Shown: positions 39,737 to 64,000, counted from the first letter of the stretch. The stretch is DNA of 64,000 bases from a candidate division WWE3 bacterium (GCA_014729135.1 WJKK01000001.1:389462-453461), one strand, 5' to 3'. The notes: generated by a model not told the origin, from the letters alone. Numbers and translations are program-made.

Positions 39737-39759
39737 CCCCGTTAATAGCGGGGTTTTTG
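39737..39759 (+). terminator. intrinsic terminator after hup
   Basis: CCCCG-ttaatag-CGGGG hairpin followed by TTTTT. Confidence 0.7.
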
Positions 39760-39771
39760 TATAATTTAAAC

Positions 39772-40908
39772 ATGAAAATCGGAATAGATTGCCAATACCT
39801 ATCCAAAAAATACCCTGCAGGACCTGAAAAATACCTCATAAACTTATTAAACGCCCTATCAAAGACAGATAAATCCAATAATTACACCCTTTACTTCAAA
39901 TCCACTCCCTCACAAAAATTACTAAAAACACTTACAAACGCTTCCTCAAATTTTTACTCTAAAGTTTTAAACTCAAACCTCTCATGGACACAACACGCTC
40001 TAACAAAAGAACTCCTAAAAAATCCCCCTGACGTTTTCTTTACAGCCTTTCACACACTTCCTGTTTTAGCAACATTTCCTCCATTTAAAGCGCTTAAAAA
40101 AACAAAAATTGTAAGCATGATTCATGGAATTGATTACATCTACGAATACAAAAATCCATTACGCAAATTTTGGGAAGGTCTGCCCTTGCGTTACACTGCT
40201 TACTTCTCGGATGCAATTATTGTTCCGGCAGCACACACAAAAGAAAAACTTTCCAAATTTCCTTGGCTAGTAGCCTCCAAAAAAATAACTGTAATTCCTG
40301 AAGGGGTTGATAATCGCTTTAAAAAATACTCCCAAGATCAAGTAAAACAAGTTCAAGAAAAATTTAACTTAGCACAAAAGCCTTACTTTCTTTTCATCTC
40401 CACAATTCAACCGCGAAAAAATATCCCTAACTTAGTAGCTGGATTTGCCCAAGCTTTAAAATCCGATCAAATCCCTGAAAATGCAGTTTTAGCTTTAGCA
40501 GGAAAAAAAGGATGGGACTATGAAGAAAGCTTAGAAGCTCCTCAAAAATACAACGTACAAAAAAACGTAAAATTTTTAGGCCGTATTTCTGATCAAGACT
40601 TACCCCCTTTACTTTCAGGAGCAACTGCTTTTGTTAGCACCTCCTTTGAAGAAGGCTTTGGACTTCCCTTGTTAGAGGCAATGGCTAGTGAAGTTCCTTG
40701 TGTAGTTTCGGAAATACCTTCATATAAAGCTTTAGCAAAAGAAACCGCTGTTTTTGTAGACCCTTATGATCCCGACTCCATTGCAAAAGGACTAGCAGAG
40801 GCTTCCACTACAAATCCGCAAACCCTAAAAAAAGCCAAAGAAACGGCACAAAAATACTCCTGGGAGGAAACCGCCAAAAAAACATTACAAGTATTTAAAA
40901 ACACCTAA
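39772..40908 (+). CDS. glycosyltransferase family 4 (GT-B fold)
   Basis: ORF 39757 trimmed to the ATG at 39772 (after the terminator); C-terminal EGFGLPLLEAMA GT4 motif. Confidence 0.75.
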   Translation: MKIGIDCQYLSKKYPAGPEKYLINLLNALSKTDKSNNYTLYFKSTPSQKLLKTLTNASSNFYSKVLNSNLSWTQHALTKELLKNPPDVFFTAFHTLPVLATFPPFKALKKTKIVSMIHGIDYIYEYKNPLRKFWEGLPLRYTAYFSDAIIVPAAHTKEKLSKFPWLVASKKITVIPEGVDNRFKKYSQDQVKQVQEKFNLAQKPYFLFISTIQPRKNIPNLVAGFAQALKSDQIPENAVLALAGKKGWDYEESLEAPQKYNVQKNVKFLGRISDQDLPPLLSGATAFVSTSFEEGFGLPLLEAMASEVPCVVSEIPSYKALAKETAVFVDPYDPDSIAKGLAEASTTNPQTLKKAKETAQKYSWEETAKKTLQVFKNT

Positions 40909-40993
40909 GCTATTATTTAAGACACCTAAAGCCCAAAAGCAAACCAACCTTTTTTACTTTTTACAACAAACAAAATCCACTATAATTTAAACA

Positions 40994-42049
40994 ATGCCTA
41001 TAAACCTGCTCGACGATCAGACAAAAATAGTCAACGATTGGCGCAAAGACAATCATGCCATTAAAAAATACAGCTTTTTGCATTTAGTTCTACCGCATCC
41101 CGAAGAAAAGCGCAGGGCTAAGCTTTTATCTTCAAAAGCGCTTTCAATTTATACGCTAATTTTAGTTCTAATTTTTGGGGCTTTTAAATTTATTCCACGT
41201 GTGGCTCCCGGAGTTTTGGGATATGCCTCTAACATTCATGTTCAAAATTTGCTGAAGGAAACTAATAAAATTCGTGCTGAGTCGGGTCTTGCTCCTTTAA
41301 AGATGAACAACGCTTTGTCACGGGCGGCACAGGCCAAAGCAAAGGACATGTTTGAGGACAATTATTGGGCGCATGTGGCTCCGGATGGGACGCAGCCTTG
41401 GGATTTCATTTTGCAGGCCGGTTATGATTATTCTTTTGCGGGCGAGAATTTGGCAAAAAACTTTAATGAATCTTCTGAGGTGGTTCGTGCTTGGTATGAT
41501 TCGCCTTCACATAGGGAAAATCTTTTAAGTGCAAATTATGATGAGATAGGTTTTGCAGTTGTTAATGGCGTTTTGGATGGTTATGAGACGACTTTGGTTG
41601 TGCAAACTTTTGGTCGGCAGCGAACGCCTACGTATTTGAGTTCGGCTAGTAATGAGCCTGTAGAGACTATAGAGGAGTCTGTTCCGGCGGAGGCTCCGGG
41701 GGAGACGCAGGGTTTGCAGGAGGTTTCCACAGATTTAGAGCAGATGGCGCCAAATGAAGATACAGAGGTGATCTTACTGGAGGAGTCCAAGCCCACCGCT
41801 ACTATTGACCTCCCCGGAGGTTTGCCTGAAGAAGACATAACGTTACCTGCTATAGACATAACTGCAGCCTCTCAATTTATAAACATTGGTTTTGTAGGCT
41901 TTTTGGGAAGTTTGTTAGTTGTAGACATTTGGTATTCAAAAAGAAAAGGCATTCGCAAAATTTCCGGGCATGCTTTGGCACACATTTTATTCTTGATTTT
42001 TGCATTTGTAGGTATGTGGTTTGCTTTATCACCGGGAAAGATTTTGTAG
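40994..42049 (+). CDS. CAP/SCP/PR-1-like domain membrane protein
   Basis: 351 aa; N-terminal TM, CAP core (...WYDSPSHRENLLSANYDEIGFAV...), acidic linker, C-terminal 2 TM. Confidence 0.65.
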   Translation: MPINLLDDQTKIVNDWRKDNHAIKKYSFLHLVLPHPEEKRRAKLLSSKALSIYTLILVLIFGAFKFIPRVAPGVLGYASNIHVQNLLKETNKIRAESGLAPLKMNNALSRAAQAKAKDMFEDNYWAHVAPDGTQPWDFILQAGYDYSFAGENLAKNFNESSEVVRAWYDSPSHRENLLSANYDEIGFAVVNGVLDGYETTLVVQTFGRQRTPTYLSSASNEPVETIEESVPAEAPGETQGLQEVSTDLEQMAPNEDTEVILLEESKPTATIDLPGGLPEEDITLPAIDITAASQFINIGFVGFLGSLLVVDIWYSKRKGIRKISGHALAHILFLIFAFVGMWFALSPGKIL

Positions 42050-42091
42050 TGCTTCAGCGGTAGTAAGGCCCAATATCAAAACTAAAACTTT

Positions 42092-42349
42092 ATGACACAA
42101 CACGAAAAACACATAGCACATTACTCCATTTTAATAAGTGGTCTAGGTCTTTTAGGCGTTCTATTCATCCTTTTTCGATACAATGAACCGCTTCAAATCT
42201 TTGTAGGTGGCTTGGGTTGTCTTTTTTACATTCTTTGGGGTATATTTCATCATGCTTTGGAAGAGCGAATTACCAAACTTGTGGTGTTTGAGTACGTTTC
42301 TTTTGGGTTGCTGGGCTTAATTTTGCTGATTTTATTTGTGACGATATAG
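42092..42349 (+). CDS. small membrane protein (85 aa, 3 TM)
   Basis: hydrophobicity only. Confidence 0.4.
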   Translation: MTQHEKHIAHYSILISGLGLLGVLFILFRYNEPLQIFVGGLGCLFYILWGIFHHALEERITKLVVFEYVSFGLLGLILLILFVTI

Positions 42350-42446
42350 ACTTCTGTGAAAGGCGCTCCAATTGGAATCACGAAAAAACTTTGCAAATCT
42401 AAAACTCCATTTGTGCTTAAGGCCTTAGCCGTTTAAAATTTAATCT

Positions 42447-43574
42447 ATGAAAACAGTTATTGTAATTCCCACTTATAACGAGCGGGAAAATATTCAAAAG
42501 CTTATTCCTGCCGTTGAAGACGTTTTAACAGAGGTTCCCGAAAAGCATGAAGTTTCTATTTTAGTAGTCGACGGCAATTCCCCGGATGGTACCGGTGAAG
42601 TGGTAGAGCAGTTTTCAGAGGAGTATCCCAACGTTCACCTTTTGCTGGAAAATGAAAAGAATGGTTTAGGTGCTGCTTACGTTTATGGCTTTAAGTACGC
42701 TATGAATGAAATGGATGCCGACGTCATTATAGAAATGGATGCCGACTTTCAGCATGATCCTGCGGACTTGCCTCGTTTTATAAAAGCTATAGAAGAAGGC
42801 GCTGATTATGTTATAGGCTCCCGTTTTGTTAAAGGGGGAAGTATCCCTAAAGACTGGGCTTTTTACAGAAAGTTTTTAAGTTGGGGTGGAAGCCTTTTTT
42901 CCAAAGTAGTTTTAGGTATTTTTAGTGTTAACGACTTTACAACAGGTTACAAAGCTTCAAGAGTTAAAGGTTTTGTAGACAAGATGGATTTAGATGCAAT
43001 TTTATCCCAAGGATTTGCCTACAAAATAGATTTATTACATCGCATGCATCGTTTAGGGTCTAAAATAAAGGAAATCCCCATTGATTTTGCTTTGCGTGAA
43101 GAGGGCGACTCTAAAATGGAAGGCAACAATATGCTTGATTCCTTACGAGTAGTTTTAACGCTGCGCCTTCGCGAACTTCAGCGATTTTTAAAGTTTATAG
43201 TTGTGGGATTTATAGGACTTTTCACCGATTTAGGCCTTTTCAACCTGCTCATCCTTTTAACGACATTACCTGAAAAATACTCCAGTGGAGCTTCCGGATT
43301 CATTGCCATGAACGTAACCTTTCTATTAAATAACTTTTGGTCCTTTGGCGACTCCAAAGTAACCAAAGTCAGCAACATCCTCAAAAAAGTACCCCTTTAT
43401 TACCTAATTTCCTACGCTCCTATAATCTTTAGAAGTTGGCTAATAAACTTTTCACTTCAAAACATTGCAGACAACTGGCTAGTGGCAAATCTTGCTTTCT
43501 TTATGGGAATTACCATAGGCTTAATCTGGAATTTTACTTTTTATAGTAAAATAATCTGGCAGAAAAATGATTGA
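42447..43574 (+). CDS. GT2 polyprenyl-phosphate sugar synthase (Dpm1-like) fused to C-terminal GtrA-like 4-TM domain
   Basis: 375 aa; VIPTYNEREN...VVDGNSPDGT...DADFQHDP GT2 motifs; C-terminal FLKFIVVGFIGLFTDLGLFNLL GtrA-like. Confidence 0.8.
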   Translation: MKTVIVIPTYNERENIQKLIPAVEDVLTEVPEKHEVSILVVDGNSPDGTGEVVEQFSEEYPNVHLLLENEKNGLGAAYVYGFKYAMNEMDADVIIEMDADFQHDPADLPRFIKAIEEGADYVIGSRFVKGGSIPKDWAFYRKFLSWGGSLFSKVVLGIFSVNDFTTGYKASRVKGFVDKMDLDAILSQGFAYKIDLLHRMHRLGSKIKEIPIDFALREEGDSKMEGNNMLDSLRVVLTLRLRELQRFLKFIVVGFIGLFTDLGLFNLLILLTTLPEKYSSGASGFIAMNVTFLLNNFWSFGDSKVTKVSNILKKVPLYYLISYAPIIFRSWLINFSLQNIADNWLVANLAFFMGITIGLIWNFTFYSKIIWQKND

Positions 43575-44322
43575 TTATTCTATAGTTATACCCGCTTATA
43601 ATGAGTCGGGGAAAATAACTGCCTCCTTAACTCAGGTTGTAAATTTTATGAACTCTTTTAATGAGTCTTATGAAGTTGTAGTGGTGGATGATGGTAGTGA
43701 AGACGATACGGTGGCAAAGATTGAGGCTTATCAAAAGGAGCATCCGAAAATTCGTTTAATTAAGAATCCGCATAAAGGGAAGGGTCCGACAGTTTGGAAG
43801 GGTATTATGGAGGCTAAAGGTAACTATATTTATTTGGCGGATGCTGATCTTTCTTCTCCTATGGAGGAGCTTAAAAAGATGGCGGTTTGGCTTACGGATC
43901 ATGATTATGATTTGGCCATAGCCTCTCGGGAAGGTCATGGTGCTCAAAGAGTAGATGAACCTTTTTATCGGCATTTAATGGGGCGCGTTTTTAATTTTTG
44001 GGTACAGGTTGTGGCTTTACCGGGAATAAAAGACTCCCAATGTGGTTTCAAGCTTTTTAAAAATGAGGTGGCAAAGGATATTTTTTCACGTTTAACAATT
44101 TATGGTGAAGATGCTCCTGAAATTAAAAAAGCTTACATGGGAGCTTTTGATGTAGAGGTTTTATTTATTGCTTTGCAGCTTGGTTACAAGATTAAGGAGG
44201 TTCCTGTGAAATGGGTTTATGTGGAGACTACGCGTTTAAACCCTCTTTCAGATTCAATAGATATGGCTTTGGACGTGCTAAAAGTAAGATTAAATACTTT
44301 AAAAGGAGTTTATAATTTATGA
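43567..44322 (+). CDS. GT2 glycosyltransferase (Dpm1/GtrB-like)
   Basis: 251 aa; VIPAYNES...VVDDGSEDDT...YLADADLSSP. Confidence 0.75.
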   Translation: MIDYSIVIPAYNESGKITASLTQVVNFMNSFNESYEVVVVDDGSEDDTVAKIEAYQKEHPKIRLIKNPHKGKGPTVWKGIMEAKGNYIYLADADLSSPMEELKKMAVWLTDHDYDLAIASREGHGAQRVDEPFYRHLMGRVFNFWVQVVALPGIKDSQCGFKLFKNEVAKDIFSRLTIYGEDAPEIKKAYMGAFDVEVLFIALQLGYKIKEVPVKWVYVETTRLNPLSDSIDMALDVLKVRLNTLKGVYNL

Positions 44323-45683
44323 AATTATGTGTCGTAGGTACAGGATATGTTGGTTTAGTGGGAGCAGCGGTTTTTGCAGATTGGGGTAATGAAGTTGTGG
44401 GAGTTGATATTGATGAGGAGAAGATTAAAAAGATTCAATCGGGTGAGATGCCAATTTATGAACCGGGTTTGGCGGAAATTGTTTTAGATAACATTGATCA
44501 GGGGAGGCTTACTTTTACCACTTCGTTGGCCAAGGGCATGAAGGATGCTGATTTAGTTTTTATTTGTGTGGGAACTCCTCAGGATGATAAGACCGGTGCT
44601 GCTAATTTAAGTGCCGTTTTAGGGGTTGCGGCAGAAATTGGCGGGAATTTGGATGGTTATAAGGTTGTTGTTACTAAGAGCACTGTTCCTGTTGGTACCA
44701 ATGAGCGTGTTAAGCAGATAGTTCGTGAAAATGCTCCTAAAGGAGCTCACTTTGATGTCGCTTCAAATCCGGAGTTTTTGCGGGAGGGTTCCTCTGTTGA
44801 GGACATGAATGTAACAGATCGTGTGGTTATTGGGGCGGAGTCGGAAAAAGCTTTTGAGAAGGTGAAAAGCTTGTATGACCACTTGAATGCGGTTATCGTT
44901 GAAACGGATTTGCGGTCGGCGGAGATGATTAAGTATGCTTCTAATTCTTTTTTGGCTACTAAAATTTCCTTTATTAATGAGATGGCTCAGATTTGTGAGC
45001 GCGCAGGGGCGGATGTTAGTGAAGTTGCTTACGGGATGGGACTTGATAAGCGTGTTGGTAAGTACTTTTTGCGTGCCGGGATAGGTTATGGAGGTAGTTG
45101 TTTCCCTAAGGACGTGGCTGCTTTGTATAAAACTTCTACTGATAAAGCTTACGATTTTAAGTTGCTGCGATCGGTTATGGAGGTAAATGAAAATCAGCGC
45201 CATTATTTTATGGATAAGGTTACGGATTATTTTGGGATGAATTTGGACGGCAAGACGATTGCTTGTTTAGGTCTGGCTTTTAAGTCTAATACGGATGATA
45301 TTCGGGAGTCGGTTTCTATTAAGATTGTACAGGCTTTGCGTGGTTTGGGGGCTAAAATCAAGGCTTATGATCCTAAGGCTATGGAAAATGCTCAAGGAGT
45401 TTTGGGTGACTTTGGGATTGAGTATGGCGAGGGGATTTATGAGGTTATGAAAGATGCTGATGGTTTGTGTTTGTTAACCGAATGGAGCCAATTTGGCGAG
45501 TTGGATTTGGAGCGGGTTAAGCAGGAGATGAAGGGTAAGGTGATTTTTGACGGTCGCAATTTGCTTGATAAAGAGGCGGTTGAAAAGGCGGGCTTTACGT
45601 ATTTTGCCATTGGTAAGCGTACAAACGGAGGGGAATATGGCCGGTTTGAGGGTGGTTCTGCTATTTTAAAGGATGCCTCTTAA
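44319..45683 (+). CDS. ugd: UDP-glucose 6-dehydrogenase
   Basis: 454 aa; N-terminal GTGYVG Rossmann motif, GGSCFPKD catalytic Cys motif. Confidence 0.85.
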   Translation: MKLCVVGTGYVGLVGAAVFADWGNEVVGVDIDEEKIKKIQSGEMPIYEPGLAEIVLDNIDQGRLTFTTSLAKGMKDADLVFICVGTPQDDKTGAANLSAVLGVAAEIGGNLDGYKVVVTKSTVPVGTNERVKQIVRENAPKGAHFDVASNPEFLREGSSVEDMNVTDRVVIGAESEKAFEKVKSLYDHLNAVIVETDLRSAEMIKYASNSFLATKISFINEMAQICERAGADVSEVAYGMGLDKRVGKYFLRAGIGYGGSCFPKDVAALYKTSTDKAYDFKLLRSVMEVNENQRHYFMDKVTDYFGMNLDGKTIACLGLAFKSNTDDIRESVSIKIVQALRGLGAKIKAYDPKAMENAQGVLGDFGIEYGEGIYEVMKDADGLCLLTEWSQFGELDLERVKQEMKGKVIFDGRNLLDKEAVEKAGFTYFAIGKRTNGGEYGRFEGGSAILKDAS

Positions 45684-46926
45684 TAACAATCTTAAAGACA
45701 ATAAAAGTGGTATGAAAAGGGTTTTGGTTTTGGTGCCTGAATTTCCTCGGTTAACTGAGACGTTTATTCAACGTGAAATTTCTAAGTTGATTGAGCTTGG
45801 TAATTTGGATGTTACGGTTTTTGCTATGGCAAAGGCAACTGGGAAGTTGATGGATAATGTCAAGGGTCACGTTGTTTATAAGCGCTTGTCTGTGGTTTCC
45901 GGTATTCGGGCTTTTTTCTATTTTTTACCGCAATTGGCTAAGGTTTTGCGGGTTTACTTCTGGTTTATTCGGCAAAGTTTAGCTGAAAAGGAAGCGTGTG
46001 TTCTGAAGGCTCCTTACTTTTTTGCCAAAAGTTGCGGTTATGCCTATTTATTTGCTGAAGAGACTCCGGAGTATATTCATGCCAACTTTATGTCCTGGCC
46101 CTCTACTATGGCGCTGATTGCCTCCAAGTTGCTGGATATCCCTTATAGCATTTCAGCCCATGCCAAGGATGTAATGGTGGAGGGGGAGTACTTTGAGGCA
46201 AAGGTGGCTAGCGCTAAGTTTATTGCAATTTGTAATGTTTATGCTTATAAATCGTGTCTGGACCAGTCCGGTAAAAAGGATCCCAAGAATGTTTTGCTTA
46301 GGTATCACGGGATTGATCCTTCCAAGGCTTTTGATGTGGATGTAAGTGTTGAAAAGCCGGCTAGAGTGGTTTTATGTAATGTAGGTGATCGATTGGTTGC
46401 TAAGAAGGGGCAGAAGTATCTTATTGAGGCTGCAAAAATTCTTAAAGATAGGGGTTATGATTTTGAGTTGCATATTGGCGGTCCTGGTCCTTTGTATGAG
46501 GAGTTGATGGCGCAAATTAAGGATTTAGGTTTGACGGATGTGGTGTTTATTCATGGTGAGGGTGAGGGGGTGCCTTTTGAAACGGTGGTGTCTTATTTAA
46601 AGATTGCGGATATTGTGGTTAAGTCGAATATTAATTTGGGTTCGGGGGATGCTGATGGGATTCCTACTTCGGTTATTGAGGCGGCAATGATGGGGAAGCC
46701 TGTTGTGGCAACGGATGCGGGTAGTGTTACTGATTTGATTGTTAATGAGGAGACGGGTTTGATAGTTTCGCAGCGGAATCCGGAGGAGTTGGCTGAGGCG
46801 GTTGTAAGGCTTTTGGATAATCCCGATTTAGCGAGTGAGTTAGCTTCTTCGGCAAAGGAAAAAGCGTTTGAAATGTTTGATTTAACCCGAAATGTGCAAG
46901 AAATCGAGCAACTGATTCTGAACTAG
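45673..46926 (+). CDS. glycosyltransferase family 4
   Basis: 417 aa; ...EAAMMGKPVVATDAGS... GT4 C-terminal domain. Confidence 0.75.
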   Translation: MPLNNNLKDNKSGMKRVLVLVPEFPRLTETFIQREISKLIELGNLDVTVFAMAKATGKLMDNVKGHVVYKRLSVVSGIRAFFYFLPQLAKVLRVYFWFIRQSLAEKEACVLKAPYFFAKSCGYAYLFAEETPEYIHANFMSWPSTMALIASKLLDIPYSISAHAKDVMVEGEYFEAKVASAKFIAICNVYAYKSCLDQSGKKDPKNVLLRYHGIDPSKAFDVDVSVEKPARVVLCNVGDRLVAKKGQKYLIEAAKILKDRGYDFELHIGGPGPLYEELMAQIKDLGLTDVVFIHGEGEGVPFETVVSYLKIADIVVKSNINLGSGDADGIPTSVIEAAMMGKPVVATDAGSVTDLIVNEETGLIVSQRNPEELAEAVVRLLDNPDLASELASSAKEKAFEMFDLTRNVQEIEQLILN

Positions 46927-47080
46927 TTTTTCCCAGCACATACACTTTTGCATATTTTATTTCAACTAGCCAAGAGGAATGTCAAGTGTAGTGAAGCTAC
47001 CTTGACTTTTTAGGTAAATGCGTGCGGAGCACCATTTAGCTATGCTGTCCCTTTTTTCCACCCATGCTAGAATACAAACC

Positions 47081-48310
47081 ATGAGGATAGCGGTCTTTAT
47101 TAAATCCACAACATTTCATGCTAATTTTGGCGGGTTGGAAACTCAAAACAAAGTTCTCTGTGAAGGTCTAGTAAAACGGGGTCATGACGTTTTAGTCTTT
47201 GCACCTCAACAAGAGCTCAAATTTGAAACCAAATACGAAAACGGGGTCAAATACCACTTCATCCCCTCCGTTTATCGCCTGCTCCGCTTTAACAAAAACA
47301 ATTGGTATTACAAATCTCAAGAAGCATTTCAAAAATTTCACAAAGAAAAATCCTTTGACCTCATACTTAGCCAAAGTTCTGCCGGAGTCGGCCCTATCTC
47401 TACAAAAGACACCTACAAAGTTCCCGCTATTTCCATCTCACATGGCACCATCCTTGGAGAGTTTCGAACACGCCTCCAAACGGCCACAGGACTTAAAGAA
47501 CTTTTAGCCCTAACAAAAGACACTCTATTTGTTCTTCATAACTTTTTTGGGCGTCAGCGCAAGTTTGTTCATGGTTCTGACAAAATCATTGCCGTATCTT
47601 CCGCTGTAAAAGAAGCTTTAGTTGAAGAGACCTTTACTCTGGAGGATAAAATAGAGGTGATAAACAATGGCATAGATCCCAAAAAGATAGAAAATGCCAA
47701 GCCTCCAGCGCATGACCATGCCTCGCCATCTAAAAAATCGATCCTTTATGTAGGGCAAATACAAAAGTCCAAAGGTTTGAATACTTTATTCAAATTAGCC
47801 CAAGAGCCCGAATTTAAGGATGTAGACTTTGAAGTGATTGGTGGGGGAGATTATCTGGAAGAACTTAGGCAAAAAACCAAATCCGCCAACATGCAGGATA
47901 AGTTTCGTCTTCATGGCAAACTTCCCTACGAGAAAGTGTTGGCTTATTTCAAAACCCCTTCAATAAAGTTATTTGCACTTCCCACTCAAAGAGTTGAAGG
48001 CTTCCCAATGGTCTTAGTAGAGGCGTTATTTGCAGGACTCCCTATAGTGGCTTATGATATAGGAGGCGTTTCAGATGCTGTGATTACGGGTAAGACAGGT
48101 TTTTTGGTTCCTGCAGGGGATTACGAAACTTTTAAGAAGCACGTCCTTGAGTTACTTTCGGATGTAGATTTACAGGAGAATCTCAGCAAACCCGCTAAAG
48201 ACTTTGCCTACAGTAATCTTACTTTGGAAGCTGTGTTATCAAGTTATGAGGAGGTTTTTGAGCAAGTAGTTGATTCGCAGGAGGAACCTGCAGAGGCTTC
48301 TGAACTTTAG
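47081..48310 (+). CDS. glycosyltransferase family 4
   Basis: ORF 47018 trimmed to MRIAVFIKS at 47081; ...EGFPMVLVEALFAGLPIVAYDIGG... Confidence 0.75.
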   Translation: MRIAVFIKSTTFHANFGGLETQNKVLCEGLVKRGHDVLVFAPQQELKFETKYENGVKYHFIPSVYRLLRFNKNNWYYKSQEAFQKFHKEKSFDLILSQSSAGVGPISTKDTYKVPAISISHGTILGEFRTRLQTATGLKELLALTKDTLFVLHNFFGRQRKFVHGSDKIIAVSSAVKEALVEETFTLEDKIEVINNGIDPKKIENAKPPAHDHASPSKKSILYVGQIQKSKGLNTLFKLAQEPEFKDVDFEVIGGGDYLEELRQKTKSANMQDKFRLHGKLPYEKVLAYFKTPSIKLFALPTQRVEGFPMVLVEALFAGLPIVAYDIGGVSDAVITGKTGFLVPAGDYETFKKHVLELLSDVDLQENLSKPAKDFAYSNLTLEAVLSSYEEVFEQVVDSQEEPAEASEL

Positions 48311-54095: not shown

Positions 54096-55595
54096 ATGAA
54101 GTCATTAGTTAAATTGCAAGTTTATAGTTTCATTTCGCGAATGAGTGCTATGCTTTTGGGAATGATTCAGACGTTTGTAATTGTTCGTGTCCTGACAGTT
54201 TCCGAGTGGGGAGTTGTGCAGTTGGCTGCTTCCATTGGAGGTGCCTTTGGAATTTACCAGCATCTTGGCCTTTCCTCCGGTTCTACCCGGGAGATTTCCG
54301 CTGCCAAGGACGATGAAGATGTTTTTAAGATTTTTTTGACCGGTTTAATAATTCGCTATTTGGTGACAATTCCCATTGCTTTATTTTTGTTTTTCTCTGC
54401 AAATAACCTAGCCCTAAATAAATATAGTAATGCTGCTCTAATTTTGCCTATTAAGCTTTACGCATTGGTTTTAATTGTTGAAAGTGCTCAAAGCATTTTA
54501 AATTCAGTAATTTCTGGAACCAAGCGCTTCAAACAGCTTTTCATTTATCAATCCTTGATAGCTTTAATTAGCGTCTGCATTTATATTCCTTTAGTCTACT
54601 TTTTTAAAGTTAATGGCTACTTTTATGCCTTGGCTTTGTTTAATTTAATTGGGACTTTAACTTTAACTGTTGTAGCTTTTAAGCCCTATTTAGGAAAGAT
54701 CTCGCTACCTTCCAAAGAAGATTTTGTGCGCTTGTTTAAAGAGCTTTTGTCTATTAGTTTGGCAATTTATGTGGTTAAGATAATTTATACGTGGTGGGAA
54801 AAGTCCGGCGCTTTATTGTTGGGGCTTGATTTAAGTTCTGAAATGGTGGCCTTCTTTTCTTTTGCGCTTTTGTATGGCAAGAAGTTGATGTTAATTTCGG
54901 ATTCAGCTACAACTGTTAATTTGCCGGTTTTATCAGAAAAGTTTACGGAGAATTTATATGAGTTTAAGGAGCTTTTCGTTAATAATTTTAATAAGCTTTA
55001 TGTTTTTATTTTAGGGGCGGGTTTTGCAGCTGTGTTTTGGGCTCGAGAAATCTTTTACGTTTTAGTTGGAGGTAATAAGTATGATTCTTCGTTGCCTCTA
55101 GTTTTGCCTTTGGTTTTTGCTTTTGTTTTTTATTCGCTTATTAACATAATTAAATCAAGTATTGTGATTCCGGCTAAGAAGGTGTTTATTATGATTGCCA
55201 GTTTTGTAATTATGATTGTTGTAACTGTAGGAGGGTTCTTTTTGTTTGGGGATAAACTGGATCCCTTGATTGCCATGGCGTATTTTGTGGCTCTGGGGAG
55301 TTTTTCCGGGCTATTGTTTATGAGTTTTGCCGGTTCTTTTAAGTTGCAGTTTAATATTTTAGGTTGGAAGCACTTTGTTTTGCTTGTTCAGGTTTTGGGA
55401 ATGTCTTTAAGCTTTTTACTGCAGAATGTATGGTTGAAAGTAATTTTATTCATTGTTTTTGTTTGGCTTTATTGGTGGGCAGTTACATTAACAGGATTTT
55501 TAACAAAGGAGCATGTCTTTATTGCCAAGGAGTTGGTTTTGTCTAAGTTAGGGGAGCTAAGGGCTAGGTTTAGGAGAGTGGAGGGAGAAATTTAA
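54096..55595 (+). CDS. Wzx-like polysaccharide/oligosaccharide flippase (MOP superfamily)
   Basis: 499 aa; ~14 TM; N-terminus typical of polysaccharide biosynthesis proteins. Confidence 0.7.
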   Translation: MKSLVKLQVYSFISRMSAMLLGMIQTFVIVRVLTVSEWGVVQLAASIGGAFGIYQHLGLSSGSTREISAAKDDEDVFKIFLTGLIIRYLVTIPIALFLFFSANNLALNKYSNAALILPIKLYALVLIVESAQSILNSVISGTKRFKQLFIYQSLIALISVCIYIPLVYFFKVNGYFYALALFNLIGTLTLTVVAFKPYLGKISLPSKEDFVRLFKELLSISLAIYVVKIIYTWWEKSGALLLGLDLSSEMVAFFSFALLYGKKLMLISDSATTVNLPVLSEKFTENLYEFKELFVNNFNKLYVFILGAGFAAVFWAREIFYVLVGGNKYDSSLPLVLPLVFAFVFYSLINIIKSSIVIPAKKVFIMIASFVIMIVVTVGGFFLFGDKLDPLIAMAYFVALGSFSGLLFMSFAGSFKLQFNILGWKHFVLLVQVLGMSLSFLLQNVWLKVILFIVFVWLYWWAVTLTGFLTKEHVFIAKELVLSKLGELRARFRRVEGEI

Positions 55596-55598
55596 AAA

Positions 55599-56156
55599 TT
55601 GAAAGTAATAGTTGGTTCTAAAAATCCGGTTAAGCTGGGAGCTGTTGTCAGCGCCTTTGAAGCGATGTTTCCTGGAATTTCATTTGAATTTGAAGGGGTT
55701 TCAGTAGCTTCTGGTGTAAGTGATCAACCTATGTCCGAAGAGGAAACTTTGGAGGGTGCTGAAATTAGAGCTCGTAATGCTCGGGAATCTTCTCCGGAAG
55801 CGACTTATTGGGTTGGTGTTGAAGGTGGTTTGGAAAAAGACTCCTTTGGGTTGCGGTGTTTTAGTTGGGTAGTTGTTCTTGGAAATTCTTCGTGCGTTGG
55901 AAAGGGTTCCTCCGGTAGTTTTTACCTTCCCGCTAAGATTAGCTCTTTAATTGCTGATGGAAAAACTCTAGGTGAAGCAGATGATTTGGTTTTTGATCGA
56001 AAAGATTCATCCAAGAAAGCTGGGGCGATAGGGCTCTTAACCGGAGGAGTAATTAATCGAGAGACTTTTTATTTTCCCGCTGTTGTTAGAGCCCTAATTC
56101 CCCATTTGAATAGTGATTTGTACCCCCATAGTGACTCTCCTAAGCATTCAATATGA
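55599..56156 (+). CDS. yjjX: non-canonical purine NTP phosphatase (YjjX family)
   Basis: 185 aa; MKVIVGSKNPVKL...SGVSDQPMSEEET...YWVGVEGG matches the YjjX ITPase/XTPase pattern. Confidence 0.75.
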   Translation: MKVIVGSKNPVKLGAVVSAFEAMFPGISFEFEGVSVASGVSDQPMSEEETLEGAEIRARNARESSPEATYWVGVEGGLEKDSFGLRCFSWVVVLGNSSCVGKGSSGSFYLPAKISSLIADGKTLGEADDLVFDRKDSSKKAGAIGLLTGGVINRETFYFPAVVRALIPHLNSDLYPHSDSPKHSI

Positions 56157-56224
56157 ATCCTAAGAAGGTATTAAACTTTTTTCATTCTTTTTTTCAATTT
56201 ACTTCAAGTGTGTATAATACCTCC

Positions 56225-59304: not shown

Positions 59305-59340
59305 GCGCGTATTTTAGCACTAAGGTATAATCTTCATGTT

Positions 59341-60330
59341 GTGAAACTAAAAACGGAAAAGTCAGAAAATACCTCCGCGGAAAAAAACAAAAAGGGGAAG
59401 CTTTTAAAAACAGGCCTAAAAATACTTGTAAGCTCGGTTCTTTTGTACGTCATTTTCTCCAGAATCGATAAAGAAAGCTTCATTCAAAACATAAGCCTTA
59501 TGGATTTGCGTCTAGCCCCCTTCATCATAGGTTTTATAATTCTTAACTACATAGTAAGCGCTTTTCGTTGGAAGCAGCTTCTTATCTATAAGGAAACACG
59601 TCAAGTGAAGCTTCCTTATCTAATAAATCTCTATTTCATCGGTTCTTTTTTCAACAACTTTATGCCTACAAGCATAGGTGGCGATGTGTTTAAGATGTAC
59701 CAACTTGGCCGCAAAATAGGTAATGCAGCAAAAGGCCTTTCCGCAACTTTCATGGAGCGTTTTACAGGAATCATTGCTTTGGTGACGATTTCCTATTTTG
59801 GTTTAATTAGAACGCTTCCGTTTTGGGTGGAAATGTTACCTGCAGATGCTCAAGCCAATCCCTTGTTGGTTACACTTTTTAAAGTCGTTTTATTTACGGG
59901 ATTTTGGATAGCTGCCGTCATTGGGTTTTTCTCTTTAAGCATTTTAGCCAAAAAAATATCCTTTTTTGAAAAAATCTATTCAGCACTTATTTCCTATAAG
60001 AACAACACGAAGCCTCTTTTTAAAGCCTTTTTAATTTCATTTGCCGTCCAACTCCTTTCAATTTTCACCCAATACTTCATTTTCCTTTCTTTAGGCGTGG
60101 AATTACCTTTGTTCTATTCCTTTTTTGTGTTTCCCGTTATAACTTTAGCCGGATTTTTTGTGCCTTCCTTAAATGGTCTTGGTGTTCAGGATGCCCTATA
60201 TATCAGCTTTATGGGAATGGTTGGAGTTTCGGAATCTTTAGCTTTAAGCGCCTCTATTCTTTATCATCTCTCCCGACTTTTGGTAAGCTTAATTGGAGGA
60301 GTTTTATATGCCCTGGGAAAAAATGAATAA
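59341..60330 (+). CDS. flippase-like (LPG-synthase TM / UPF0104) membrane protein; start uncertain
   Basis: ORF 59158 overlaps elp3; GTG at 59341 follows TATAAT at 59325-59330; IGSFFNNFMPTSIGGDVFK core motif. Confidence 0.5.
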   Translation: MKLKTEKSENTSAEKNKKGKLLKTGLKILVSSVLLYVIFSRIDKESFIQNISLMDLRLAPFIIGFIILNYIVSAFRWKQLLIYKETRQVKLPYLINLYFIGSFFNNFMPTSIGGDVFKMYQLGRKIGNAAKGLSATFMERFTGIIALVTISYFGLIRTLPFWVEMLPADAQANPLLVTLFKVVLFTGFWIAAVIGFFSLSILAKKISFFEKIYSALISYKNNTKPLFKAFLISFAVQLLSIFTQYFIFLSLGVELPLFYSFFVFPVITLAGFFVPSLNGLGVQDALYISFMGMVGVSESLALSASILYHLSRLLVSLIGGVLYALGKNE

Positions 60331-61945
60331 ACTATTTACAAATAAGGTTCTCCTGATTTTTGTTTTCATAGTGCTTTTTGCTGCAACCCGCCTTCCTTAT
60401 TTAGGTAAAGATGCCATTAATCCCGATGCTGTTAATTGGCACTATCGTTCAGAGCAGTTTGTTGTGGGTTTAAAAAATGGAATTTGGGAAAAGACCTATC
60501 AGCATTATCACCCGGGAGTTACTTTGATGTGGGTTTTAGGGCCAACGGTTGAGGTTGCTCGGCAGATTAATCCGGAGTTTCGGGTTTACGATCATCATAA
60601 CTTTTTATATTTGCATACTTTAGGTAAGCAGGTTTTGGTGGCGGTTCAGTTGATTCTTTCTTTAGGGGTTTTGTACGTTTTTTCCAAAATTTTAGGTTTT
60701 TACAAAGGGTTTTTTGTGACGGCGCTTTTTTCTTTAGAGCCTTTTTTCATCGGAAATTCGCGGATGCTTCACATGGATGTTTTGTTGACGCTGTTTTTGT
60801 GTTTGGGCTTGGGTCTTGCTTATTTAGGCCTTTTTTCCGGAAAAGCTTTTAGTAAATCCTCTGAGGGGACTGTCTCTTCAACTGGGCTTTCCAGCAAAGG
60901 TATTTTCAAAACCGGGAACCCCTCAATAGCACTCATCTTCTCCGGAGTCTTTTTAGCGCTTGCTTTCCTAACTAAGAGCATTGCTATAGGGGCCATTCTT
61001 TTTGTTTTAGGCATGGCTGTTTTAGTAAAACTAAAAACCCCCAAGGAATTACCGAAGACTTTATTGCTAATACTTGTCCCTTTTGTTGCGGCTTTATTTC
61101 TGTTCTTTCCGGCACTTTGGGTAGAGCCTGTTCATACCATAGTTCGAATTTTTGATGAAGCCGAACGCGTGGGAATTAGAAAAGGGCATGGTCAGATTTA
61201 TTTTGGCAAGTACACACGAGATCCAGGATTGTTTTTTTATCCTGTTGTGATCTTTTTAAAAACTTCTCCCGTTTTGCTTTTAGGAGTTTTAGCTTTTCTT
61301 GCAACTCTGCTAAAGGCCTCTAAAGGCAAACCTCTAGTTCGATTTTTCCGTGACAATGAAATTTCCTTTTTAGGCTTTTTAACAATATTTTTTGCAGGAT
61401 ACATGTTGGTCATGACCATATCCTCCAAAAAGATTGATCGCTACTTAGTCCCGCTTTTTCCTTACTTAAGCTTAATGGCAGTCTTAGGCTTTGCGTCTTT
61501 AAAAAAGATAAAGAGCGCTGTAATAGTTTCACTTTCTTTACTTGCCCTACTGGCCTTAAACTACAAAGCACATCCTTATCAATTCACGTACACAACTCCT
61601 CTTGTAGGATCTGCCGAAAGAGCCCACTGGATGGTTGCCCAAAAACCTTTTGGCATAGGAATCCCTTATCTTAAAGAGTTAATCCTGGATTCCTACGGCA
61701 AAAACTACCCTCCTCTAGGTTTTTACGATACTAAGCCTATGAAAACAATTTATCCTGCCACAAAAGTAGCTGATGTTGATGTAAATGGCGTTTCGGACTA
61801 TGTGTTTTTGATTCTGGGTCCTAACGAAGAGATGCCTGAGGAAGTCTTGGATTCGCCTTATCCCTTTGAATTAGATAAAGTAGTAAATATAAATGGTTTA
61901 GATTATTGGAGAATTTATGATCGAAAAGGAAATCCCCAAGATTAA
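60293..61945 (+). CDS. GT-C membrane glycosyltransferase (PMT_2/ArnT-like), paralog A
   Basis: 550 aa polytopic; conserved QHYHPGVTLMW loop shared with the gene at 63457. Confidence 0.55.
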   Translation: MEEFYMPWEKMNKLFTNKVLLIFVFIVLFAATRLPYLGKDAINPDAVNWHYRSEQFVVGLKNGIWEKTYQHYHPGVTLMWVLGPTVEVARQINPEFRVYDHHNFLYLHTLGKQVLVAVQLILSLGVLYVFSKILGFYKGFFVTALFSLEPFFIGNSRMLHMDVLLTLFLCLGLGLAYLGLFSGKAFSKSSEGTVSSTGLSSKGIFKTGNPSIALIFSGVFLALAFLTKSIAIGAILFVLGMAVLVKLKTPKELPKTLLLILVPFVAALFLFFPALWVEPVHTIVRIFDEAERVGIRKGHGQIYFGKYTRDPGLFFYPVVIFLKTSPVLLLGVLAFLATLLKASKGKPLVRFFRDNEISFLGFLTIFFAGYMLVMTISSKKIDRYLVPLFPYLSLMAVLGFASLKKIKSAVIVSLSLLALLALNYKAHPYQFTYTTPLVGSAERAHWMVAQKPFGIGIPYLKELILDSYGKNYPPLGFYDTKPMKTIYPATKVADVDVNGVSDYVFLILGPNEEMPEEVLDSPYPFELDKVVNINGLDYWRIYDRKGNPQD

Positions 61946-63470
61946 AAAGGCTTTTACGGAAAAGATTTGCACTAAAGAGTTGTTTTGTAGAAATAAGACT
62001 TTGATTTTTCTTCTTGTTGTTGGAGGTTTGTTACGGCTGCTTGGTTTAAGGCATGGGTTTCCTTTTATTTTTCATCCGGATGAGCCTTCGGTAATTCGTT
62101 CTGCCTTAGGCATTCGTTTTTTTCCAAATCCGGATCATTTTGATTGGCCTCATCTATATTTTTATCTGAATTACTTTTTGTATATGGGATTTTCAGGTTT
62201 TCGTAACTTTTTGGAGGCGTTACGTTTAAAACCGTTTATTTCCGATATTTTCCCTCTAATTTGGAACGATCCTTTAATCTTTTATTATCTTACTCGGCTT
62301 TTTTCTGCAACTTTGGGGACATTAACAATAATCCCGCTTTATCTTTCCGGCAAAGAACTTTTCGGCAAAAGGGGAGGGATTCTGGCCGCTTCCATTTTAG
62401 CCATCTTTCCTTATCATGTTTGGCATTCTCATTACAGCGTAATTGATGTTCCAATGCTCTTTTTCTTTGCTTGGGCAGTTTATTTTTCTATAAAGGTTTT
62501 ATTTTCGGATAAGCTTTTGCATTACATTTTAGCGGGTGCATTTGTTGGTTTAGCCGCTTCCACTAAATATCATGGAGGTTTTTCCGCTTTCTTTTTAGGA
62601 TTTGTATTTTTTGCAAAGTATCTGTCTTCAAAGGATTTCCCCGGTTTATTGAAGAATAGTTACAAGCCTTTTTTAGCGGGAATAACTTCCCTAGTAACCT
62701 TTCTACTGGGAACTCCTTTTGCTCTTTTGGATTGGGAGACGTTTAGTAGCACGGATTCAGCAAAGGGGGCTTTTTGGCAGTTTACAAATGTAGGAAGCGT
62801 TTCCTTTAATCAGCAGATTTTTCAGTTTTTAAATGCCTTTATTGACAAGTTTATGCATGATTGGAGCATTACTTTTGTTTTTGCTTTTTTGCTTGCAGCA
62901 GGGTATGCGGTCTACATTTTATTTAGGCAAAAGGAGGATATCGCTTTAAAAACCAAGCTTTTAGCACTTTTCGTACCGGCTTTTACCTTTTTAGTTTATA
63001 TTTCCGGTTTTGAGAAAAATCGAAGTCACTATTACATGATTGCCTATCCATTTGTTATTTTAGGTATAAGTTGGTTTCTTTTAACTCTGGAGAAGTTTTC
63101 CAAATCCAAAGAATACGTTATGTTGTTGTTTGTTGTCTTTGCTTTTCCTGTAGTTTTATCTGTTAAGAATATGCTCATGTTTGCATTAAAGGACACGCGT
63201 GTAGTCTTACATGATTGGTACGGTATGCGCTTGGATCTGAAGTCTTATAAGTTTTATTCAGATAGTGACGAGTTGAAGGCGTCGTTAACCGGAGATGGTG
63301 GCAGTGCTAAATCTCCCGAGGATTATGTTATAGGGGAGGAGCTTTCGCCTCCTTATGTTTTAGTGAAGCAATGCTCTTCCGATAAGGAGTTTAAAGATCA
63401 AAAGCCTTTTAAAGTTATAGAAAACACCTTAAGGAGAGGTCCGGAGATCTGTATTTATGTGCAAGATTAA
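61917..63470 (+). CDS. GT-C membrane glycosyltransferase (ArnT/GT39-like)
   Basis: 517 aa polytopic; ...FIFHPDEPSVIRSALG... periplasmic-loop motif. Confidence 0.55.
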   Translation: MIEKEIPKIKKAFTEKICTKELFCRNKTLIFLLVVGGLLRLLGLRHGFPFIFHPDEPSVIRSALGIRFFPNPDHFDWPHLYFYLNYFLYMGFSGFRNFLEALRLKPFISDIFPLIWNDPLIFYYLTRLFSATLGTLTIIPLYLSGKELFGKRGGILAASILAIFPYHVWHSHYSVIDVPMLFFFAWAVYFSIKVLFSDKLLHYILAGAFVGLAASTKYHGGFSAFFLGFVFFAKYLSSKDFPGLLKNSYKPFLAGITSLVTFLLGTPFALLDWETFSSTDSAKGAFWQFTNVGSVSFNQQIFQFLNAFIDKFMHDWSITFVFAFLLAAGYAVYILFRQKEDIALKTKLLALFVPAFTFLVYISGFEKNRSHYYMIAYPFVILGISWFLLTLEKFSKSKEYVMLLFVVFAFPVVLSVKNMLMFALKDTRVVLHDWYGMRLDLKSYKFYSDSDELKASLTGDGGSAKSPEDYVIGEELSPPYVLVKQCSSDKEFKDQKPFKVIENTLRRGPEICIYVQD

Positions 63471-64000
63471 GTCTTTTATTCAAAATTTTGGTATTGAAAT
63501 TGCTGTTTTTCTCTTTTTTGTGTTGCTGCATATTCCTGGTTTGGGGAGGGAGACGTTTAATACGGATGTGTGGAAGTGGAAGGCTCGAACTTATGATTTT
63601 GGGGAGGGGGTTTTTACGCTGAATTTTGAAAAAACCATTCAAAAGTATCACCCGGGGGTTACTTTAATGTGGATAGGTACTGGGGCTGTAAAGATTTACA
63701 ATTTATATTACGATTTGGTTTTTAGCCATCCTCCTGTAAATAACGATGTCTCCACGGTTTTTGAATTGCATCTGGTTCAGAAGTTTTGTCTGGTAGTTTT
63801 TATTGCGCTTGCTTTATCTTTTTGCATCTATGTTTTAAAAAAGGAGTTTGGAAAGAGGGTTGCGCTTATTTTTGGGATTCTTGCTAGTATAGAGCCTTTT
63901 TACTACGCTTTAACTCGTGTTTTTCACTTGGAAGGTTTGATGTCGATTTTGATGTTGGCCTCTTTTCTGTGGTTTTATCATTATTTGCAGGAGAAGAAGT
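63457..64000 (+). CDS. GT-C membrane glycosyltransferase, paralog of 60293 (partial, runs off the window)
   Basis: Hand-translated from the ATG at 63457: MCKIKSFIQNFGIEIAVFLFF...KYHPGVTLMWIGTG...; no stop before position 64000. Confidence 0.5.
   Translation, partial: MCKIKSFIQNFGIEIAVFLFFVLLHIPGLGRETFNTDVWKWKARTYDFGEGVFTLNFEKTIQKYHPGVTLMWIGTGAVKIYNLYYDLVFSHPPVNNDVSTVFELHLVQKFCLVVFIALALSFCIYVLKKEFGKRVALIFGILASIEPFYYALTRVFHLEGLMSILMLASFLWFYHYLQEKK

Follow-up and report, generated by a model that had tools for sequence, protein, structure and literature searches.

In the Gac, Csb, Gtl and Gtr systems (GacI/GacJ/GacK/GacL, CsbB/GtcA/YfhO, GtlA/GtlB and GtrA/B/V), a synthase of the glycosyltransferase (GT) fold A, GT-A, is encoded together with a flippase and a polytopic enzyme of the GT-C fold. 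Described variants include Wzx-type flippases, GT-C enzymes of the PMT_2 type such as GtlB and GttB, and GT-A synthases that lack transmembrane (TM) segments and work with a small membrane partner, for example GacI with GacJ (PMC8035078). The same three classes are co-encoded in the DNA analysed here, a stretch of 64,000 nucleotides from a candidate division WWE3 bacterium (GCA_014729135.1, WJKK01000001.1:389462-453461; hereafter the window, with positions counted from its first letter). WWE3 is a candidate phylum within the Patescibacteria, or Candidate Phyla Radiation (CPR). The glycan genes that fill most of the last 24 kb of the window (39757–64000) are co-inherited as a unit, and probably form the larger part of an operon of 27–30 kb that assembles an envelope glycan by an expanded form of multi-component transmembrane glycosylation.

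Gene classes were assigned by Pfam, NCBIfam and PDB sequence searches. An earlier interpretation of the interval, made from the DNA alone (the sequence-only reading), had listed four GT4, three Dpm1-like GT2, ugd, a Wzx-like flippase, a UPF0104 flippase-like protein and five or six GT-C proteins, all on one strand. All the listed classes were recovered on the plus strand by Pfam and NCBIfam (Table 1), and the number of GT-C proteins settled at the low end, with four PMT_2/ArnT-like proteins (C1, C3, C4 and C5) and one DUF2079 protein. A single orientation holds for the glycan genes, although the interval also contains ELP3 on the minus strand.

Relatives of the cluster were sought with an alignment of the DUF2079 protein, which found 116 species-level genomes. 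The best 80 were retained, nearly all of them WWE3 or unclassified Patescibacteria and with the complete genome CP006914 (RAAC2_WWE3_1) among them, and gene order was counted in those 50 of the related loci that span 21 kb or more, with open reading frames (ORFs) labelled by best match. One order is found across the relatives, CAP–(small TM)–DPMS–GT2b–Ugd–GT4b–GT4c–GT4d–C1–GT2c–DUF2079–Wzx–(UPF0104)–C3–C4–C5, and it recurs far more often than expected by chance. DUF2079–Wzx is kept in 50 of 50 loci, followed by GT4b–c–d (47/50), C3–C4–C5 (46/50), DPMS–GT2b (44/50), GT2c–DUF2079 (40/50) and Wzx–UPF0104–C3 (35/50). Because this order is maintained at median identities to the window proteins from 39% (C1) up to 67–68% (GT2c and Ugd), it has survived long divergence; the distant Patescibacteria locus L084, whose DUF2079 protein is only 30% identical, retains C1–GT2c–DUF2079–Wzx–GT-C–GT-C. 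The tightest sub-modules, GT2c–DUF2079–Wzx and UPF0104–C3, mirror the synthase, flippase and GT-C triads of the known systems and thereby support the mechanism proposed below.

The comparative synteny suggested along with the sequence-only reading thus gave an order that hardly varies among about 50 WWE3 genomes of different species, and for this reason the cluster is taken as a vertically inherited, native and lineage-defining WWE3 operon. Horizontal acquisition as an island was considered and rejected: the G+C fraction of the interval (0.37–0.42) does not stand out from that of the remaining window, the interval shows neither flanking repeats nor tRNA genes nor signatures of mobile elements, and the order is kept phylum-wide. 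The "24 kb island" of the sequence-only reading is therefore a glycan cluster but not an island; three housekeeping genes interrupt it, the first GT4 gene (GT4a) lies outside it, and it exceeds the window. In the relatives the cluster continues past C5 with a second Wzx-like gene, two GT2 genes, a ferredoxin gene and a B12-binding radical SAM gene, and in some genomes with epimerase/dehydratase genes. The post-C5 genes lie at 15807-21539 in locus L001, 14680-19716 in L003 and 14748-16952 in L085, and one of the GT2 genes is of the Glyco_trans_2_3 type; one relative genome has an epimerase–GT4 fusion downstream of the third PMT_2 gene. The pair of ferredoxin and radical SAM genes hints that a sugar or lipid is modified in an unusual way.

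The three GT2 proteins are paralogues across the catalytic domain (about 245 residues aligned), conserve their DxD motifs, and appear closest to polyprenyl-phosphate sugar synthases (the DPMS of Pyrococcus furiosus, ArnC, GtrB, AglJ and PpgS). The product of the gene at 42447 aligns from residue 1 to 355, its full length, with the type III Pyrococcus enzyme (PDB 5MLZ, E 1.7e-46), ArnC being next, and the alignment takes in the GT2 domain, the interface and the four-TM GtrA/DPMS domain; its DAD motif (EMDAD) is conserved and the median identity of its orthologues is 58%. Given this full-length alignment, the "GtrA" domain, taken in the sequence-only reading as fused to a GT2 enzyme, is the membrane domain that belongs to type III DPMS enzymes and not a separately fused flippase. 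In contrast to the Pyrococcus enzyme, the WWE3 protein is bacterial, and the lipid that it charges is presumably undecaprenyl phosphate or some other polyprenyl phosphate.

GT2b and GT2c have no predicted TM segment and are 26% (over 254 residues) and 31% identical, respectively, to the DPMS-like gene. For GT2b the best PDB match is DPMS 5MLZ (4.6e-18), followed by ArnC and GtrB; it aligns full-length with a haloarchaeal dolichyl-phosphate hexose transferase model, below the cut-off, and matches exopolysaccharide-type GT2 models of NCBIfam about equally well. For GT2c, with a median orthologue identity of 67%, ArnC (7.7e-17) and DPMS (9e-16) match over about 207 residues, and AglJ scores 106 bits, below its cut-off. 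GtrB (5ekp) ranks lower among the PDB matches of the GT2 proteins than DPMS 5MLZ and ArnC, and the best NCBIfam models are AglJ, PgfS and ArnC, with PpgS and dolichyl-phosphate hexose transferase lower and all below their equivalog cut-offs. The nearest relatives of the set are thus DPMS, ArnC and GtrB, as its description as Dpm1-like implied, rather than soluble nucleotide-sugar transferases unrelated to lipid carriers.

Between the CAP and DPMS genes lies an ORF for an 85-residue membrane protein, in which A4, Y46, W49, G50, H53, E67 and Y68 are invariant in the alignment, giving a W-G..H...E-Y signature. This protein may serve the TM-less GT2 proteins as GacJ serves GacI, or may be a small flippase. 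In Pfam it matches DUF5656 only, and there just the C-terminal portion (16 of 20 members); membership of the GacJ or GtrA family was rejected, as neither has Pfam support.

All five polytopic proteins belong to the GT-C superfamily, two by structure model and Foldseek search and the others by Pfam, homologues and profile comparison. The AlphaFold2 models of C3 (35 homologues) and of the DUF2079 protein (30 homologues) have predicted local distance difference test scores (pLDDT) of 88.1 and 85.8 and predicted template modelling scores (pTM) of 0.90 and 0.81, respectively, and with both models GT-C enzymes are the sole matches at E<1e-3. C4 is above the gathering scores (GA) of PMT_2 and of PMT (PF02366, GA 22.7), whereas C1, C3 and C5 stay under the PMT score. 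Many C1 homologues carry PF13231 or PF02366 (PMT_2/PMT), and the C1 profile aligns with the C3 profile in hhalign at 95% probability (E 1.6e-8). C3 has no Pfam match itself, and its homologues are annotated as GT39 or as members of the ArnT family. C5, a C3 paralogue (31% identity), is placed after C4 in the relatives and is about 530–542 residues long in its full-length orthologues. TM prediction gives multiple hydrophobic segments in these proteins. Sequence and profile searches of C1, C3, C4 and the DUF2079 protein against the PDB returned nothing beyond a marginal match of the C3 family profile to ArnT (5ezm, E 0.011).

Each of the five carries acidic residues directly after the first TM helix (TM1): EWGD in C1, FD..KFDLGN in the DUF2079 protein, NPD in C3, HPDEP in C4 and FNTD in C5. 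These residues are at least 90% conserved across 61–78 orthologues from the related genomes. E-W-G-D is invariant in the C1 family and N-P-D in the C3 family; in the DUF2079 family the invariant residues are D45 (in the KFDLGN motif), D66 and H79-V-D81-P; D54-E55 of C4 is kept by 90% or more of its 61 orthologues; and C5 conserves, besides FNTD, the sequence QKYHPGVTLMW. The K/R-rich N-termini and the GT-C models imply an outward orientation of the acidic loop, the one seen in known GT-C enzymes. The search for DxD/DE motifs in periplasmic loops that the sequence-only reading had called for thus yielded acidic variants after TM1, kept in all five proteins, and its assignment of the polytopic proteins to GT-C stands, the catalytic-loop residues being present. 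Their donors would be lipid-phosphate-linked sugars, a putative assignment for which the context is the three co-inherited synthase-like GT2 genes.

The DUF2079 protein is the least familiar member of the set; we found nothing relevant in the literature on DUF2079 (PF09852). Its top 22 PDB matches in Foldseek are all GT-C enzymes, led by AglB (2.3e-6) and followed by STT3, PglB, DPY19 and ArnT. In the model, residues 460–700 (240 residues) form an extracytoplasmic C-terminal region, with an alpha/beta part and an Ig-like sandwich, which has weak matches to NPC2/ML and to the Wzt carbohydrate-binding domain. Residues 345–355, preceded by a conserved GIGTSEI-NHR, are modelled with low confidence and probably form a flexible external loop; SGPDYLGAH at residues 485–492 is invariant within the extracytoplasmic domain, and C462 and C551 are conserved cysteines. 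These features bring up an en-bloc, Wzx-dependent route, in which the GT4 enzymes would build an undecaprenyl-diphosphate-linked oligosaccharide started by an unlinked phosphoglycosyltransferase, Wzx would flip it, and the DUF2079 protein, as a divergent oligosaccharyltransferase (OST) or ligase, would pass it to an acceptor in the wall or on a protein. Terminal sugars would then come from the PMT_2 enzymes, in the manner of AglS in Haloferax. The ranking of OSTs (AglB, STT3 and PglB) ahead of ArnT, the sizeable OST-like external domain, the adjacency of DUF2079 and Wzx in all 50 loci, and a gene set like that of haloarchaeal Agl, with AglJ-, AglM-, AglR- and AglS-like members, would fit such a route. 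So would the G-T-S-E ahead of the 345–355 loop and the invariant GPDYLGAH, which may loosely resemble the TIXE/SVSE and WWDYG motifs of OSTs. On the other hand, the Foldseek TM-scores are low (about 0.4), the DUF2079 protein has no Pfam STT3 match, its profile has no similarity to any PDB chain and hence finds no OST there, and its pairing with a monosaccharide-type GT2 points to a polyprenyl-phosphate-sugar donor. None of the five GT-C proteins contains a WWD or WxDxG motif, and a canonical OST was rejected on the lack of WWD. We consider the en-bloc route very unlikely.

For C3, the Foldseek search places ArnT first (5f15, E 3.2e-7), then AglB, ALG9, AftA, Pmt4, STT3, PglB and Emb, with no non-GT-C fold at E<0.3 in the PDB; Pmt4 and Pmt1/2 come behind ArnT, AglB and ALG9. 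Together with Ugd and an ArnC-like GT2, shared with the Arn pathway and standing side by side with this ArnT-like (GT83) protein, the match evokes an Arn-like charge modification of a membrane lipid against cationic peptides, with a flippase to complete it. The similarity of C3 to ArnT is, however, marginal at the sequence level (the 5ezm profile match given above), equivalents of ArnA, ArnB, ArnD and ArnE/F are missing from the cluster, and lipid A synthesis is lacking from the candidate-phylum genomes, WWE3 among them, that Kantor et al. (2013) compared (PMC3812714). Three GT4 enzymes, five GT-C proteins and three synthases would also be left unexplained. For want of ArnA, ArnB, ArnD and lipid A the Arn pathway proper was rejected, and even a variant of it seems barely credible.

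The relation of C4 to PMT raises a further alternative, protein O-glycosylation after the actinobacterial Ppm1/Pmt model, in which PMT_2/PMT-like GT-C enzymes would transfer mannose or another hexose straight from a polyprenyl-phosphate sugar onto Ser/Thr of secreted or S-layer proteins or pilins, and the GT4 enzymes and Ugd would serve a different glycan. C4 passes both the PMT and the PMT_2 gathering scores and has a "DE" (in HPDEP) after TM1 as in PMTs, many homologues of the GT-C proteins are named "glycosyltransferase family 39" by NCBI, and the operon includes a DPMS-type synthase. Its first gene, moreover, encodes a secreted CAP protein with a S/T/P-rich linker, and pilins and sortase substrates are encoded in WWE3 genomes (PMC3812714). 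Against this, no PMT_4TMC or MIR domain was matched in Pfam at E<=0.01, phmmer with C4 found no PMT chain in the PDB, so that there is no sequence-level match to solved PMTs, and the best structural match of C3 is the lipid-modifying ArnT, not a PMT. PMT_2 is a broad family that includes the wall-polymer glycosylases GtlB and GttB (PMC8035078), and C4 has in addition a sub-threshold STT3 match (17.8 bits, GA 24.5). Five GT-C proteins, three synthases, three GT4 enzymes and Ugd exceed the needs of protein O-mannosylation, and no target protein was identified; a literature search for Patescibacteria with O-mannosyltransferase and for CPR with GT-C found nothing relevant. Protein O-glycosylation, with a separate glycan for the GT4 enzymes and Ugd, is thus an unlikely but serious alternative.

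On the cytoplasmic side, Ugd scores 552 bits against TuaD, 398 bits against AglM and 474 bits against TIGR03026 (cut-off 190), and is the most conserved gene of the cluster (68% median identity). It is by best match a UDP-glucose 6-dehydrogenase, as the sequence-only reading had it, and should supply UDP-glucuronate; glucuronate itself is retained as one likely sugar of the product. GT4b aligns full-length to EpsE (152 bits, below cut-off) and has as best PDB matches PimB' and TarM, both weak (about 5e-9). The best NCBIfam model for GT4d is TuaC (81 bits, below cut-off), with a median identity of 54%. For the acceptor type of the GT4 enzymes these best matches reflect generic GT4 similarity and are uninformative.

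A lipoglycan comparable to the mycobacterial phosphatidylinositol mannosides (PIM), lipomannan (LM) and lipoarabinomannan (LAM) could nevertheless be made by such enzymes, with the GT4 proteins glycosylating a membrane lipid inside, a flippase carrying it outward and the GT-C proteins polymerising and branching it with sugars from polyprenyl phosphate, a route that would need neither undecaprenyl-diphosphate initiation nor Wzy nor a ligase. It would account for the lack of a phosphoglycosyltransferase, Wzy and LCP in the cluster, and the gene classes fit PimA/PimB' (GT4), Ppm1 (GT2) and PimE/MptA/MptB/Emb (GT-C). The PimB' match of GT4b, the below-cut-off matches of GT4 proteins to glycolipid-anchor and diacylglycerol glucosyltransferase models, and the MprF-type lipid-flippase domain point the same way. 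Yet the GT4 matches reflect generic similarity of the C-terminal domain, at about 1e-9 and all below curated cut-offs, the WWE3 GT-C proteins are nearer to ArnT and OSTs than to PimE and Emb in the Foldseek ranking, and Wzx-like MOP proteins usually carry polyprenyl-linked rather than acyl-lipid-linked glycans. We regard a lipoglycan as a doubtful outcome, though one to be kept in mind.

In the mechanism that we favour, assembly by an expanded transmembrane glycosylation system, Ugd would make UDP-glucuronate at the inner face of the membrane, and the three GT4 enzymes (of the GT-B fold) would build a lipid-linked oligosaccharide or glycolipid from nucleotide sugars. In parallel, the three Dpm1/ArnC/GtrB-type GT2 enzymes would load polyprenyl phosphate with single sugars, giving up to three different polyprenyl-phosphate monosaccharides, and the two TM-less GT2 enzymes would possibly be aided by the conserved 85-residue membrane protein. 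The Wzx-like MOP protein, the MprF-type UPF0104 protein and the second Wzx-like protein encoded beyond the window are candidates for carrying lipid-linked intermediates to the outer face. There, the five GT-C enzymes (DUF2079 and four PMT_2/ArnT-like) would extend or decorate an extracytoplasmic acceptor stepwise from polyprenyl-phosphate sugars. The candidates for that acceptor are a wall-associated glycopolymer (possibly anionic and containing glucuronate), a lipoglycan and surface proteins, and the present data cannot decide among them.

Several points weigh against this mechanism. Neither the window nor the examined flanks of the relatives yielded an initiating phosphoglycosyltransferase, a Wzy-type polymerase, an LCP ligase or a WWDYG-type OST, and the Wzx-like protein is the one component of a Wzx/Wzy pathway that the window and the clusters of the relatives encode. 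With these gaps, and with the cluster continuing past the window end, the "complete pathway" of the sequence-only reading is not supported. The missing steps may be supplied by unlinked genes, or may not be needed, as would be the case for a lipoglycan or for direct O-glycosylation of proteins. Furthermore, GT2b and GT2c are TM-less and below every curated NCBIfam cut-off, and a lipid-phosphate acceptor is suggested for them by their nearest relatives only. The GT-C-like archaeal Agl23 is reported to be a flippase, not a transferase (PMC11182771); C3 (31 bits) and C4 (21 bits) match the Agl23 model TIGR03663 without reaching its curated cut-off of 126 bits, and by this precedent some of the GT-C-fold proteins need not be transferases. 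Finally, every step is a prediction from sequence and models.

The glycan genes begin at what appears to be a strong terminator-like boundary, a hairpin with an 11-bp stem and a T-run (39733-39757) directly 3' of HU. This hairpin, overlapped by the TTG from which the mechanical ORF of GT4a runs, is the only element that looks meaningful in a scan for promoters and terminators, in which counts were at or below the shuffled expectation. A syntenic orthologue of GT4a at this position is found only in L065, and GT4a thus adjoins the conserved WWE3 cluster without being part of it. The cluster instead starts with the CAP gene, conserved just upstream of the DPMS gene in 49 related loci, whose product begins with a TM helix and ends with further TM helices, and has a linker that is acidic and rich in S, T and P. 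The CAP protein also has a match below cut-off to the divisome-associated lipoprotein DalA.

Within the interval, the insertion of ITPase, ProRS and ELP3 genes (55599–59304) between Wzx and UPF0104 is confined to this subclade. A minus-strand ELP3 is also present in L007, L011, L018, L065 and L069, and the closest relative, L085, has at the same spot a tRNA_edit gene, a minus-strand ELP3 and a methyltransferase fragment. ELP3 and UPF0104 are divergent, with their starts (59304 and, as the likely one, 59341) 36 bp apart, which makes the transcription of the downstream GT-C genes ambiguous. Upstream of the interval, the first 20 kb of the window are a ribosomal-protein operon, and the region from 17.8 to 39.7 kb is housekeeping, with genes for a ClpB-like protein, GreA, a release factor (RF), RecJ, an AsnRS/AspRS-type protein, a D-Ala-D-Ala carboxypeptidase, GluRS, RecA, RNase Y, YmdB and HU. 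No tRNA gene and no Rfam match at gathering threshold occurs in the whole 64 kb. The CAP/YkwD protein, the 85-residue three-TM ORF, the ITPase, ProRS and ELP3 had gone unlisted in the sequence-only reading.

Table 1. Features of the window, with likely gene starts where the mechanical ORF was overlong (scores in bits).
Feature	Coordinates	Strand	Evidence and remarks
S10-spc-alpha ribosomal protein operon	1-17000	+	
D-Ala-D-Ala carboxypeptidase	31022-32053	+	Peptidase_S11
GT4a, GT4	39772..40908	+	Pfam Glycos_transf_1 102, Glyco_transf_4 47; mechanical ORF from TTG 39757, ATG 39772 likelier start
CAP/YkwD-domain membrane-anchored protein	40994..42049	+	Pfam CAP 77.8; YkwD 104, under cut-off
85-residue three-TM protein	42092..42349	+	tblastn at same position in 50 loci
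DPMS-type GT2 with GtrA_DPMS_TM domain	42447..43574	+	Pfam Glycos_transf_2 100.7, GtrA_DPMS_TM 50.6
GT2b, TM-less Dpm1-like GT2, 251 residues	43567..44322	+	Glycos_transf_2 104.9
Ugd, UDP-glucose 6-dehydrogenase	44319..45683	+	all three UDPG_MGDP_dh domains
GT4b, GT4	45673..46926	+	Glycos_transf_1 103
GT4c, GT4	47081..48310	+	Glycos_transf_1 117, Glyco_transf_4 74; mechanical ORF from 47018, MRIAVF at 47081 likelier start (NCBIfam alignments begin at residue 22)
GT4d, GT4	48332..49525	+	Glyco_transf_4 81.7, Glycos_transf_1 77
C1, PMT_2/ArnT-like GT-C (GF360_02255, 546 residues)	49497..51137	+	PMT_2 22; mechanical ORF from 49431, start moved to 49497 (NCBI length and sequence)
GT2c, TM-less Dpm1/AglJ/ArnC-like GT2, 230 residues	51204..51896	+	Glycos_transf_2 111
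DUF2079 GT-C-fold protein, 700 residues	51987..54089	+	DUF2079 94; equals an NCBI protein of the contig that also encodes GF360_02255 and GF360_02295
Wzx-like MOP-family flippase	54096..55595	+	Polysacc_synt_3 57.5 (GA 23), Polysacc_synt 48.4; polytopic
YjjX-type ITPase	55599-56156	+	housekeeping gene inside interval
Archaeal/eukaryal-type ProRS	56153-57652	+	TIGR00408 550
ELP3, bacterial homologue	57646-59304	-	TIGR01211 538
UPF0104/MprF-type flippase-like membrane protein	59341..60330	+	LPG_synthase_TM 155.6; TIGR00374 68 (cut-off 43); mechanical ORF from 59158, GTG 59341 likelier start; orthologues about 312-332 residues
C3, ArnT/PMT_2-like GT-C (GF360_02295, 545 residues)	60308..61945	+	homologues with PMT_2 or PMT; 100% identical to the NCBI protein; mechanical ORF from 60293, start moved to 60308 (NCBI length and sequence)
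C4, PMT_2/PMT-family GT-C	61917..63470	+	PMT_2 55.2, PMT 47.2
C5, GT-C, N-terminal 181 residues only	63457..64000	+	PMT_2 23.9 on fragment; runs past window end

Among the four candidate-phylum genomes compared by Kantor et al. (2013), that of WWE3 has the highest abundance of glycosyltransferases and is alone in lacking a complete identifiable peptidoglycan pathway (PMC3812714). A D-Ala-D-Ala carboxypeptidase is, all the same, encoded in the window (Table 1). The operon could, in a bolder version of the mechanism that we favour, be the assembly line of the principal wall or surface polymer of WWE3, with the DUF2079 protein, paired with the most conserved GT2 and a Wzx-like protein, polymerising the glycan outside the cell or transferring it en bloc as an enzyme of a new class. 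If so, a glucuronate-containing layer would supplement or partly replace peptidoglycan, the pathway of which is reported to be incomplete. We hold this extension to be quite improbable as it stands.

The wider setting gives the locus its interest. Bacteria of the CPR are ultra-small, mostly uncultured and thought to be host-attached, and their envelope chemistry is essentially unknown. The glycan-related genes of the window, about 19.9 kb, make up about 2.3% of the 864,248-bp contig, so that the operon, with its 15 to 20 genes in one order across the candidate phylum, takes at least 2.3% of an 864-kb genome, in agreement with the large investment that the sequence-only reading had seen in it. 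With its phylum-wide order it is likely to hold a central place in the WWE3 cell surface, and through this in attachment, recognition by phages and immunity. Among its parts, three putative polyprenyl-phosphate-sugar synthases, a DUF2079 family with a high-confidence model, and the conserved catalytic-loop residues are amenable to testing. No published description of this WWE3 operon was found in the literature.

Returning to the described systems, the tua operon of Bacillus subtilis is the nearest for the cytoplasmic genes: TuaD is the closest relative of the WWE3 Ugd, GT4d matches TuaC, the GT2 proteins match TuaG weakly, and a Wzx-like protein is present, all of which suggests an anionic polymer containing glucuronate. 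However, equivalents of the initiating transferase TuaA, of the polymerase TuaE and of TuaF are missing from the WWE3 cluster, and tua, unlike the WWE3 operon, has no GT-C enzymes and no polyprenyl-phosphate-sugar synthases. The Arn system shares Ugd, the ArnC-like GT2 and the structural match of C3, but WWE3 has neither lipid A nor ArnA, ArnB and ArnD. The haloarchaeal Agl system (AglJ/AglD, AglM, AglR, AglS and Agl22/Agl23) is composed of the same classes of parts, and in both a polyprenyl-type donor, dolichyl-phosphate hexose in Agl, would be used outside the cell; here, by contrast, the host is bacterial, the cluster has no AglB/STT3 and no WWDYG, and the matches of GT2c to AglJ (106 bits), of Ugd to AglM (398 bits) and, weakly, of C3 and C4 to Agl23 are all below curated cut-offs.

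The mycobacterial and corynebacterial pathways to PIM, LM and LAM and to arabinogalactan have in common with WWE3 cytoplasmic GT4 steps followed by several GT-C steps fed by polyprenyl-phosphate sugars, and the lipoglycan branch needs neither Wzy nor a ligase. Their genes are dispersed, whereas those of WWE3 lie in one operon, and the WWE3 GT-C proteins have no sequence-level relation to GT87, GT53 or GT85 and rank by fold with ArnT/PMT_2 and OSTs. From the Gac, Csb, Gtl and Gtr systems, in turn, the WWE3 operon differs in joining three synthases, at least three flippase candidates, five GT-C proteins, three GT4 enzymes and Ugd, in including the uncharacterised DUF2079 GT-C, and in lacking linked genes of the TagO, Wzy and LCP types for the polymer itself. 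All of its parts come from known superfamilies, and its logic is known from Gac/Csb/Gtl, from mycobacterial LM/LAM and arabinogalactan, and from haloarchaeal Agl. New here are the scale and the fusion of these elements in one operon, the central and uncharacterised DUF2079 GT-C, and the host lineage; the advance is a variant in a new lineage rather than a new principle.

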